Shown: positions 18,447 to 19,088 of the stretch, one piece after another
Layout of the letters: every line of letters begins with the position of its first letter
How positions within the stretch are numbered: position 1 is the stretch's first letter
Origin: a virus
Taxonomy: Duplodnaviria; Heunggongvirae; Uroviricota; Caudoviricetes
IMG/VR virus record: IMGVR_UViG_2534681774_000032
Location: 1-33,164 of that record
Reading direction: 5' to 3' (one strand)
Length of the DNA stretch: 33,164 nucleotides
Made by a program: the position numbers and the translations under genes
The notes under the pieces: generated by a model
What the model saw: the letters and a program-made list of their open reading frames with translations, nothing else
The model's database searches: none
What the model was told of the DNA's origin: nothing

Positions 18447-18640
18447 GCAGAATATTTTGCTGAAAAATAAGGCATGGCCACGCGGGCGGATAACACGAAA
18501 TCCTGCGAACTGGCGAAACGTAAGTGAATAAAAGTAAAAACCCCGTTTGTTGGCAGCAAGCGGGGTTTTGTTTTTATGGCAGTAAGCTATGGGAGGCTGC
18601 CTTGATTGATTTTAGCAAACTGATTAGGGAGTTGCGACTC

Positions 18641-18736
18641 ATGATTAGTCAATTACCAAACTGGAAATTTTTGCTGGTCTGGAGCATCCCTTTTTTATGG
18701 GTAGTATCCCAGTTAATTGTGGCAATTAAGGGGTAG
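18641..18736 (+). CDS. Putative small hydrophobic peptide P1 (31 aa)
   Basis: ATG 18641 preceded by AGGGAG; MISQLPNWKFLLVWSIPFLWVVSQLIVAIKG; first of four tandem small membrane-peptide ORFs between endolysin and Rz. Confidence 0.3.
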   Translation: MISQLPNWKFLLVWSIPFLWVVSQLIVAIKG

Positions 18737-18738
18737 CT

Positions 18739-18870
18739 ATGTCAGACAAACTCATAACGCCGGCAAAGGTCCTGTGTGTGATTGTCGGTATTTCATTTTC
18801 ACTAATGCTGGTTGCTCTTTTTCTGTCCCTCGCCTGGGTGATGTTGTCTTCGTCGGGGCTGCTGGGGTGA
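18739..18870 (+). CDS. Putative small hydrophobic peptide P2 (43 aa)
   Basis: ATG 18739 preceded by AAGGGG, 3 nt after the P1 stop; MSDKLITPAKVLCVIVGISFSLMLVALFLSLAWVMLSSSGLLG. Confidence 0.35.
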   Translation: MSDKLITPAKVLCVIVGISFSLMLVALFLSLAWVMLSSSGLLG

Positions 18871-18989
18871 CAGTGACTGATGACATCAGCAGAGCGCTGG
18901 CTTTTGCTATTAAGTGGGTGGCTGTTGGTATTGCTGTGTCTCCGATGCTATATGGGCTGGCAAAACTGGTCATTGCGCTGAAATCGTGA
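18867..18989 (+). CDS. Putative small hydrophobic peptide P3 (40 aa, GTG start overlapping the P2 stop)
   Basis: GTGA overlap with P2 stop; VTVTDDISRALAFAIKWVAVGIAVSPMLYGLAKLVIALKS; C-terminal part of ORF 18717..18989. Confidence 0.25.
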   Translation: MTVTDDISRALAFAIKWVAVGIAVSPMLYGLAKLVIALKS

Positions 18990-19000
18990 ACTTTAAAAAG

Positions 19001-19087
19001 ATGAGTGCTGAACTTATTCGGGCAATGGCATTTGCCATTCGTATTGTGGCCATTGCTGTTCTGGTCTGGGCAATCCGTTGGTGGTGA
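19001..19087 (+). CDS. Putative small hydrophobic peptide P4 (28 aa), stop 2 nt before the Rz start
   Basis: [28 protein letters not shown]; stop TGA at 19085-19087 and Rz ATG at 19089 suggest coupling. Confidence 0.3.
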
Positions 19088-19088
19088 T

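Follow-up and report, generated by a model that had tools for sequence, protein, structure and literature searches.

A hairpin-led cassette of candidate small membrane-peptide genes at the endolysin-spanin junction of an Escherichia coli lambdoid prophage

The stretch of DNA considered here, called the window in what follows, is the 33,164-nucleotide (nt) record IMGVR_UViG_2534681774_000032 of IMG/VR (positions 1 to 33,164), and the feature of interest is a 642-nt segment of this Escherichia coli lambdoid prophage (18447-19088), 100% identical to E. coli 55989, that separates the gene of the endolysin R from that of the inner-membrane spanin subunit Rz. A first-pass annotation had placed in this gap a hairpin and four same-strand open reading frames (ORFs) for hydrophobic peptides, all of which are present there; the resulting gene order, R followed by P1, P2, P3, P4 and Rz, puts separate membrane-protein genes between the endolysin and spanin genes. 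We infer R, whose N-terminus is weakly hydrophobic (19-residue hydropathy of 1.87 at residue 9), to be an endolysin of the signal-anchor-release (SAR) type. The features of the cassette are as follows, with peptide lengths in amino acids (aa):

17279-17494: S21-type class II holin gene (PF04971)
17499-17849: YdfR/DUF1327 gene, between the holin and endolysin genes
17913-18446, + strand: endolysin R, a phage lysozyme (PF00959, E = 7.7e-24), left flank of the insert
18447-18536, + strand: spacer 3' of R, hypervariable among near-identical prophages
18537-18569, both strands: GC-rich hairpin with T runs on both strands (terminator scan, folding, covariation)
18570-18601, + strand: P1 leader, with the Shine-Dalgarno (SD) sequence GGGAGG at 18591-18596, 5 nt before TTG 18602
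18602-18736, + strand: P1, 44 aa, TTG start (phrog_6632, E = 1.3e-12)
18739-18870, + strand: P2, 43 aa (phrog_4906, E = 4.5e-21)
18867-18989, + strand: P3, 40 aa, GTG start (phrog_1115, E = 3.7e-25)
19001-19087, + strand: P4, 28 aa (phrog_4493, E = 3.8e-6)
19089-19556, + strand: Rz, inner-membrane spanin subunit (PF03245, E = 2.1e-51), right flank of the insert
19309-19494, + strand: Rz1, outer-membrane spanin subunit, embedded in Rz (PF06085, E = 4.3e-21)

Homologues of R and Rz are adjacent in Qin, where they overlap by 4 nt, and in DLP12-type cassettes, where they are contiguous and align as one 396-nt piece over a 400-nt joined query; relative to these cassettes the segment is thus an insert, as had been proposed. 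Its GC content is 46% (0.385 in P1) versus 54-55% in R and Rz. Sequence related to the insert is found in 2068 of 5426 complete E. coli genomes (~38%), with at least 80% of the insert covered in 587 genomes, and its carriers include O157:H7 and Shiga-toxin (Stx) phages. Twelve variants of the 642-nt insert contain 23 polymorphic sites, 14 of them concentrated within 18469-18520, just 3' of the R stop codon. A 17-codon ORF at 18475-18528 (MATRADNTKSCELAKRK), preceded by AAGG, overlaps this hypervariable stretch and is probably non-coding.

The four ORFs P1 to P4 are very probably genuine protein-coding genes. Their best 19-residue Kyte-Doolittle windows reach 2.19, 2.87, 1.90 and 2.21 for P1, P2, P3 and P4, respectively (P1 being scored as a 31-aa ORF), and these values of 1.9-2.9, together with AlphaFold2 models of P1 and P3, bear out the proposal of a single membrane helix per peptide. 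The + strand of the region has five hydrophobic ORFs of 28 aa or more and the - strand has none; when the region was shuffled 3000 times, no shuffle had more than three and 82% had none. Ratios of nonsynonymous to synonymous change (pN/pS) in the proposed frames are 0.26 for P1, 0.56 for P2, 0.18 for P3 and 0.34 for P4, compared with 0.75-8.4 when the two remaining frames are scored (1.3 and 8.4 for P3), and third codon positions are enriched for polymorphism. These are summed pairwise ratios from divergent DNA copies in E. coli genomes, Salmonella contigs and IMG/VR; the diversity was drawn from hits spread across the E. coli genomes and from look-ups of divergent proteins, the viral-contig scans with alignments A1 and A2 having returned 80 near-identical loci each, which are of no use for substitution analysis. 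With 36 distinct P1 sequences, the ratio for P1 is 0.19-0.35. The fifth hydrophobic ORF (ATG 18880-18981), in another frame inside P3, was set aside as non-coding, since pN/pS there exceeds 1.

All four ORFs remain open in 33 distinct gap variants and match PHROG families of unknown function (phrog_6632, phrog_4906 and phrog_1115/3246/4493), and three or four of the four are annotated in RefSeq as hypothetical proteins (WP_001043230.1, WP_001280935.1 (P2), WP_042004856.1, WP_032140280.1 (P4)). The peptide families have homologues in E. coli and Salmonella and in seven further genera, and cassette genes are present in phages grown on E. coli C and K-12. The first-pass annotation had let its proposal hinge on the conservation of the reading frames in related prophages; such conservation is found, in the purifying pN/pS values of 0.18-0.56, in the PHROG matches and in the homologues from other genera. 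To judge from the sequence searches, the peptide families are small and confined to Enterobacterales.

Each peptide consists of a short N-terminal segment and one C-terminal membrane helix, and the four peptides represent three families. The tails past the helix are KG, SSSGLLG, KS and (R)WW, that is 0-7 residues with at most one charge. The N-terminal segment is probably cytoplasmic (N-in), an orientation suggested solely by the excess of basic residues in the N-termini. P1 is built of an N-terminal amphipathic helix (IDFSKLIRELR), the sequence QLPN and the C-terminal membrane helix; its AlphaFold2 model has helices at residues 4-16 and 21-43 (predicted local distance difference test score, pLDDT, of 80.8). 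A protein search with P1 returned 16 clusters, which extend to Salmonella, Providencia, Citrobacter, Enterobacter and Klebsiella, and homologues of 44-45 aa starting with (M/V)IDFSKLIRELR are found in Citrobacter, Enterobacter, Klebsiella, Providencia, Pantoea and Brenneria. The first-pass annotation listed four ORFs of 28-43 codons; its count holds, and its start for P1 at ATG 18641 (18641-18736, 31 aa) does not: the 13 residues upstream of it are conserved in at least six genera and their codons are under purifying selection (for the 19 codons upstream of ATG 18641, pN/pS is 0.17-0.41 in the P1 frame and 0.95 or more in the others), and the start is for these reasons assigned to TTG 18602, giving 44 aa. 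RefSeq models a 70-aa P1 from GTG 18524 (elsewhere P1 is unannotated) and a 51-aa P3 from 18834, a CTG in the window; both were rejected because the extensions translate the hairpin and the P2 region, respectively, and are not conserved as protein.

P2 is a single-pass membrane peptide whose SD sequence, AAGGGG, is supplied by the last codons of P1, and its stop codon overlaps the start of P3 in GTGA; both of these couplings had been noted before and are confirmed. Protein searches with P2 returned 103 clusters, all from E. coli where named, and in Stx phages a homologue of P2 immediately precedes Rz. Those with P3 returned 69 clusters from E. coli and Salmonella; its AlphaFold2 model is one helix spanning residues 2-39 (pLDDT 94). 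P3 and P4 belong to one superfamily, whose canonical members of ~48-60 aa read (M-x-KYKRILLRLT)-MKNGLE-x-x-APVT-x-EIS-x-A-x-AFAI(K/R) followed by a membrane helix and end in one of two ways, ...YGLAKLxIALKS (P3) or ...AIRWW (P4); only 22 clusters of it emerged when 1.84 billion representative proteins were searched by profile. P3 is a shortened member of the MKNGLE...AFAIK...YGLAKLxIALKS family that has lost the MKNGLELKAP part, and P4 is a short branch of the superfamily ending in IRWW, with relatives of 28-61 aa. The window P4 has an alternative short N-terminus, MSAELIR, and the same form is found in the independent proteins P0048 (56 contigs) and P0203. No clear SD sequence precedes P4, whose own last codons (GGTGGTGA) form the SD sequence of Rz, so that the IRWW-stop ending (CGTTGGTGGTGA) doubles as the ribosome-binding site (RBS) of the spanin gene. 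The P4 stop had been placed 2 nt before the Rz ATG; as it ends at 19087 and the ATG begins at 19089, a single base separates them.

The hairpin expected at about 18535-18575, and described as bidirectional, has its stem at 18537-18569 and T runs on both strands. Its folding energy is -21.4 kcal/mol for the + strand, with z = -4.1, and -14.2 kcal/mol for the - strand, and it scores as an intrinsic terminator, the sole strong one, which lies upstream of the ORFs. The hairpin is the conserved 5' boundary of the cassette and not an incidental structure: a ~75-nt element precedes the first small ORF in almost every context and genus, with the consensus AAAA(C/G)CCCG-loop-CGGGG(T/C)TTT, then CTGTTTCTnCACCTTGAnnnAGGCAAGGGAGAAC, then the start codon. 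Across 32 distinct leaders the first stem covaries: at pair 9-37, 20 leaders have AU and 12 have GC, and compensatory substitutions are seen at four other pairs. In canonical leaders a second stem is predicted, in which UUUCU...CCUUG pairs with CAAGG...GGAGAA and the SD sequence is paired (-6.3 to -10.6 kcal/mol). The SD sequence is thereby predicted to be buried in most of 31 canonical leaders, the second stem being too conserved for covariation. The P1 leader of the window is a diverged copy that has kept the hairpin and lost the second stem (no significant structure, z = -0.02), and as a consequence the P1 SD sequence is exposed. A covariance model of the leader, R1, finds a single copy in the window (52.4 bits) and others ahead of cassettes elsewhere; K-12 Qin yields none, nor do the four Stx-type loci at E <= 0.01. 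No sigma-70-like promoter was found on the + strand in 17000-20100 by a consensus scan, which leaves room for other promoter types; the sole promoter-like match is on the - strand at 18745..18716, with 3.5 such matches expected by chance.

The junction between endolysin and spanin genes is a variable slot. In other genomes it holds inserts of roughly 300, 330, 490, 600 or 640 nt, and the following arrangements were read:

R-P1-P2-P3-P4-Rz: this window
R-P1(with stop)-P2-Rz: locus L162
R-P3(60 aa)-P2-Rz: includes O157:H7
R-P3...P4-Rz: locus L166
R-P4(37 aa)-Rz: locus L172
R-ant-P2-Rz: Stx phages
different holin, 161-aa lysozyme, P3, Rz: Salmonella
GH108 or M15 endolysin, P3/P2-like or P4-like genes, small lipoprotein: loci L170 and L171

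Where this was read, in eight loci of E. coli and Salmonella, the last small ORF stops 1-11 nt ahead of the Rz-type gene. Overall, the families are partnered with six types of endolysin (GH24, GH108, M15, GH19, CHAP and phrog_873) and precede at least three families of Rz-like spanins. In the E. coli prophages L170 (1235-1756) and L171 (1177-1582), small ORFs are followed by a lipoprotein of 60-63 aa (lipobox LVGC, phrog_7528), with no Rz-type gene annotated in the vicinity; this lipoprotein might be an outer-membrane component of lysis that has gone unrecognised. The idea that it forms an unusual spanin pair with a peptide of these families was dropped, as the peptides have no periplasmic domain. 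In two contigs, the IMG/VR contig L038 among them, the P4 frame continues after ...VLVWAI into a long tail-fibre-like ORF that replaces IRWW-stop and Rz, which indicates a putative rearrangement joining the cassette to a distant late gene.

The families are also found outside lysis cassettes. In a survey of one genome per species together with IMG/VR, relatives of P1 occur in Citrobacter, Providencia, Brenneria, Pantoea, Symbiopectobacterium and Dryocola, in part beside genes for baseplate central spikes; two spike types are involved, which are mutually related (E = 8e-11), and one of them carries PF18352 and a GpV apex motif and is followed by the baseplate wedge gene phrog_120. In Dryocola clanedunensis (L191 2570-3093), three tandem small membrane ORFs lie between the spike and wedge genes, namely a 52-aa ORF ending in VIRWW, a P3-type ORF (MKSNLTLDAPVTREIS...) and a P1-type ORF. 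On two IMG/VR contigs (L250 2941-3156, and L251) a P1-type N-terminus (VVNLSKILKEFRLMGEKLSNWKFLLIW) is fused to a P3-type C-terminus (LYGVARLIEAIKQ), and such hybrid proteins imply recombination between the peptide families. Because of the tail-module arrays and the hybrids, the arrays of these families appear to be a recurrent unit that moves between late-operon junctions.

How might such a cassette work? The composite reading favoured here, plausible but held tentatively, is that of a promoter-less, moron-like late cassette at the endolysin|spanin junction whose inner-membrane peptides modulate the membrane steps of lysis. Since no sigma-70 promoter lies between the hairpin and P1 and a terminator stands directly upstream, it is likely that the peptides are expressed late only: transcription would take place only when Q-modified RNA polymerase coming from the late promoter reads through the hairpin. 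Translation would then proceed serially, by SD hand-off and stop/start coupling, and end 1 nt before Rz, and the peptides would reach the inner membrane late in lytic growth, alongside the holin, the endolysin and the spanin. There they may exert a non-essential modulation of the membrane steps of lysis, through its timing, the behaviour of the holin or spanin, or the energisation of the membrane. Terminator and hidden RBS would together form a double lock, an arrangement that would be sensible if the peptides harm the membrane. Position and coupling make lysis modulation the most economical reading in the window, and the gene lysA of phage P2, described below, offers a precedent; because of the baseplate contexts, actual tuning of lysis by the peptides is rated as doubtful.

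Several observations weigh against this reading or against function altogether. P1 directly follows a baseplate central-spike gene in 44 of 67 loci (~66%) and sits between an endolysin and an Rz-like spanin in only 14 (~21%), the remaining loci having P1 between the tail genes I and J, behind an LPD38 protein of 965 aa, or in other places; the 67 are the loci with a scorable upstream gene, redundant contigs included, and the counts are thus indicative only. The 14 lysis-type loci combine a GH19, CHAP, M15 or phrog_873 endolysin with a phrog_1026 or phrog_214 spanin, or, in L247, with an unscanned 156-aa Rz-like protein as the spanin. As the P1 family and arrays of P1 and P3 type are commoner beside baseplate-spike genes, a specifically lysis-related role is weakened, at least to judge from gene neighbourhoods; the first-pass annotation had considered lysis-timing modulators (antiholin or releasin-like), superinfection-exclusion peptides or small membrane toxins. 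A releasin of the phage Mu gp25 type acts specifically on a SAR endolysin, and the six or more unrelated endolysin partners, putative non-SAR ones among them, and the baseplate contexts would argue against such a role. The Qin and DLP12 cassettes do without these peptide genes, and the lysis cassette of lambda works without such peptides. The window-type array is near-clonal (99-100% identity across 587 genomes), so that its own conservation says little about selection. Stop and frameshift variants are known (L162, L070), and P3, which lacks the canonical N-terminal 20 residues, and P4, which lacks a clear SD sequence, may both be poorly expressed or decaying. Searches of the window and five related loci with Pfam, NCBIfam, PADLOC and Rfam gave nothing functional for the peptides, the families have no functional annotation in Pfam, NCBIfam, PHROGs or PADLOC, the PADLOC defence models have no match at E <= 0.1, and no Rfam family matches the window cassette. 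The peptides have no entry in the supplements of the ribosome-profiling papers on enterohaemorrhagic E. coli (EHEC) Sakai and EDL933, no paper describing them was found by theme or RefSeq accession (preprints on small proteins of uropathogenic E. coli (UPEC) and on the Enterobacteriaceae microproteome included), and no experimental or expression data for them were found in the literature.

Other explanations start from the same observations. The peptides could be morons that benefit the lysogen, produced before induction by read-through or from a promoter that is weak or not of the sigma-70 type, and serving host or prophage at the inner membrane, for example by blocking the injection of superinfecting DNA, the site next to Rz being merely tolerated; this is rather improbable. 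Small inner-membrane exclusion proteins are an established class (HK97 gp15, T4 Imm, P22 SieA), and the variable presence at one junction, the GC content below that of the flanks, the accessory gene ant at the same R|Rz site in Stx phages and the further occurrence of the families in tail and baseplate modules, as is typical of morons, all fit such a view. However, it would call for lysogen expression, which is opposed by the conserved terminator directly upstream and by the predicted SD-hiding leader of canonical cassettes; there is no promoter-like site on the + strand between hairpin and P1, PADLOC gives no match, and the array is tightly coupled to late genes on either side.

A selfish or addiction module of membrane-depolarising, toxin-like peptides, silenced by terminator and SD-hiding leader, with a possible contribution from an antisense RNA ending at the bidirectional hairpin, is very unlikely. 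Single-helix hydrophobic peptides of 28-44 aa would suit it, as would a hairpin able to terminate on both strands and the SD sequestration predicted in most canonical leaders, the SD sequence being likewise sequestered in type I toxin mRNAs. The - strand match at 18745..18716 could moreover drive a ~170-nt RNA antisense to P1, but this match, already fewer than chance would provide, has a -10 hexamer that P1 variants alter (from ATTGTG to ATTACT or ATTACA) and a -35 hexamer that is merely the P2 start codons; being neither significant nor conserved, it led to the rejection of the antisense, type I toxin-antitoxin (TA) idea. The supposed toxin would also lack its own promoter, Rfam families do not match, and the cassette is always found inside phage late operons in sense orientation. 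Equally hard to credit is a recombination scar that is partly or wholly non-functional, in which P1 and P2 may function while the truncated P3 and the short P4, or in the extreme case all four ORFs, are untranslated remnants kept for the spacing and RBS of Rz and by the recent spread of the prophage. The loss of MKNGLELKAP from P3 with its GTG start, the missing SD sequence of P4, the disrupted variants, the second use of the IRWW-stop ending as the SD sequence of Rz, and near-identity in hundreds of genomes, which leaves little time for decay, can be read in this way. Against it stand the purifying selection on the frames across divergent relatives, the openness of each ORF in the 33 gap variants, the recurrence of the short N-terminus MSAELIR/MNAELLR in separate P3- and P4-type proteins (P0048 and P0203 among them), and the variant P0190, in which a Met residue aligns with the GTG start of P3, so that the potential for a start is kept.

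By comparison with known systems, the array is most like morons or like LysA of phage P2, a protein of ~140 aa, yet for each class considered P1 to P4 lack some defining feature. A classical moron sits between a promoter of its own and a downstream terminator, and the prophage expresses it. With morons in the HK97/HK022 sense (HK97 gp15, bor, lom), the cassette shares the variable presence at one junction, the lower GC content, the mosaic make-up and the several late-operon positions; unlike them, it has no detected + strand sigma-70-like promoter, its terminator is upstream and its leader is predicted to hide the RBS. In phage P2, the non-essential antiholin gene lysA lies between the endolysin gene K and the Rz/Rz1-like genes lysB/lysC, is co-transcribed with the late genes and is thought to tune the timing of lysis; its product has four transmembrane domains (PMC3091744). 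P1 to P4 are likewise separate membrane-protein genes between endolysin and spanin genes, but they encode four peptides of 28-44 aa with one helix each, have no Pfam or NCBIfam match (the LysA sequence was not compared directly) and belong to families that occur outside lysis cassettes too.

In size (<60 aa), hydrophobicity, single helix and the predicted RBS sequestration of canonical cassettes, the peptides resemble the type I toxins TisB, Hok/Gef, Ldr, Ibs and ShoB; they differ in having no conserved antisense RNA gene, no promoter of their own and no Rfam or Pfam match, and in always lying in sense orientation in late operons. As holins do, they belong to the small phage membrane proteins with a transmembrane domain that are encoded in a lysis cassette, but they have no hydrophilic, highly charged C-terminal domain and a recognised holin (PF04971) is already in place. 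Another comparison is with the pinholin/antiholin S21 (S68/S71) of phage 21, which has two transmembrane domains, carries charge in its C-terminal tail and is encoded ahead of the endolysin. Like P1 to P4 it is a small inner-membrane protein of this cassette type, and a holin gene of S21 type lies 1 kb upstream; by contrast, P1 to P4 have a single helix each, with 0-7 residues beyond it, and are encoded after the endolysin. From an inner-membrane spanin subunit they differ by their C-terminal helices and the lack of a periplasmic coiled-coil domain.

The peptides themselves are already catalogued, as PHROG families and as RefSeq hypothetical proteins, and the undescribed part appears to be the unit formed by terminator, leader and micro-genes. 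A broader and, on present evidence, unlikely proposal would be that of an undescribed, widely mobile cassette of temperate phages of Enterobacterales, made of a covarying terminator hairpin, an RBS-sequestering leader and one to four interchangeable micro-genes, which settles at endolysin|spanin and spike|baseplate wedge junctions and whose peptides constitute a new class of late membrane effectors; if true, the peptides might, among other possibilities, extend the lysis pathway by a further tunable component or condition the inner membrane as infection ends. Should they tune lysis, they would be a new component of the holin/endolysin/spanin pathway that could affect the timing of phage and Shiga-toxin release, and were they to act in exclusion or as toxins, the few phage micro-proteins characterised so far would gain new members. 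The occurrence of one terminator-leader-micro-gene unit at unrelated late-operon junctions in nine genera would in any case make a clean case for the movement of accessory genes between phages. The cassette is widespread in prophages of pathogenic E. coli and is not surprising in kind.

A few further observations concern the surroundings of the cassette. The YdfR/DUF1327 gene (17499-17849) marks a second accessory slot of the lysis cassette; in E. coli 55989 and other relatives it is truncated or has a small opposite-strand ORF alongside. Rfam matches above the gathering score were obtained in related loci for STnc100, upstream of the holin gene in a Salmonella prophage (L175 1153-1360, + strand, 67.8 bits), and for sRNA-Xcc1 on an IMG/VR contig (L202 4060-4143, - strand, 78 bits). 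Downstream of Rz, the sequence GAAAATGATAACCATTATC at window positions 19753-19771 has two mismatches to the 19-bp Fur-box consensus GATAATGATAATCATTATC, with 0.02 matches expected by chance; it sits in a ~450-nt non-coding stretch between Rz and the DUF1441/terminase genes, which in related prophages holds a TonB-family or PerC-family gene.

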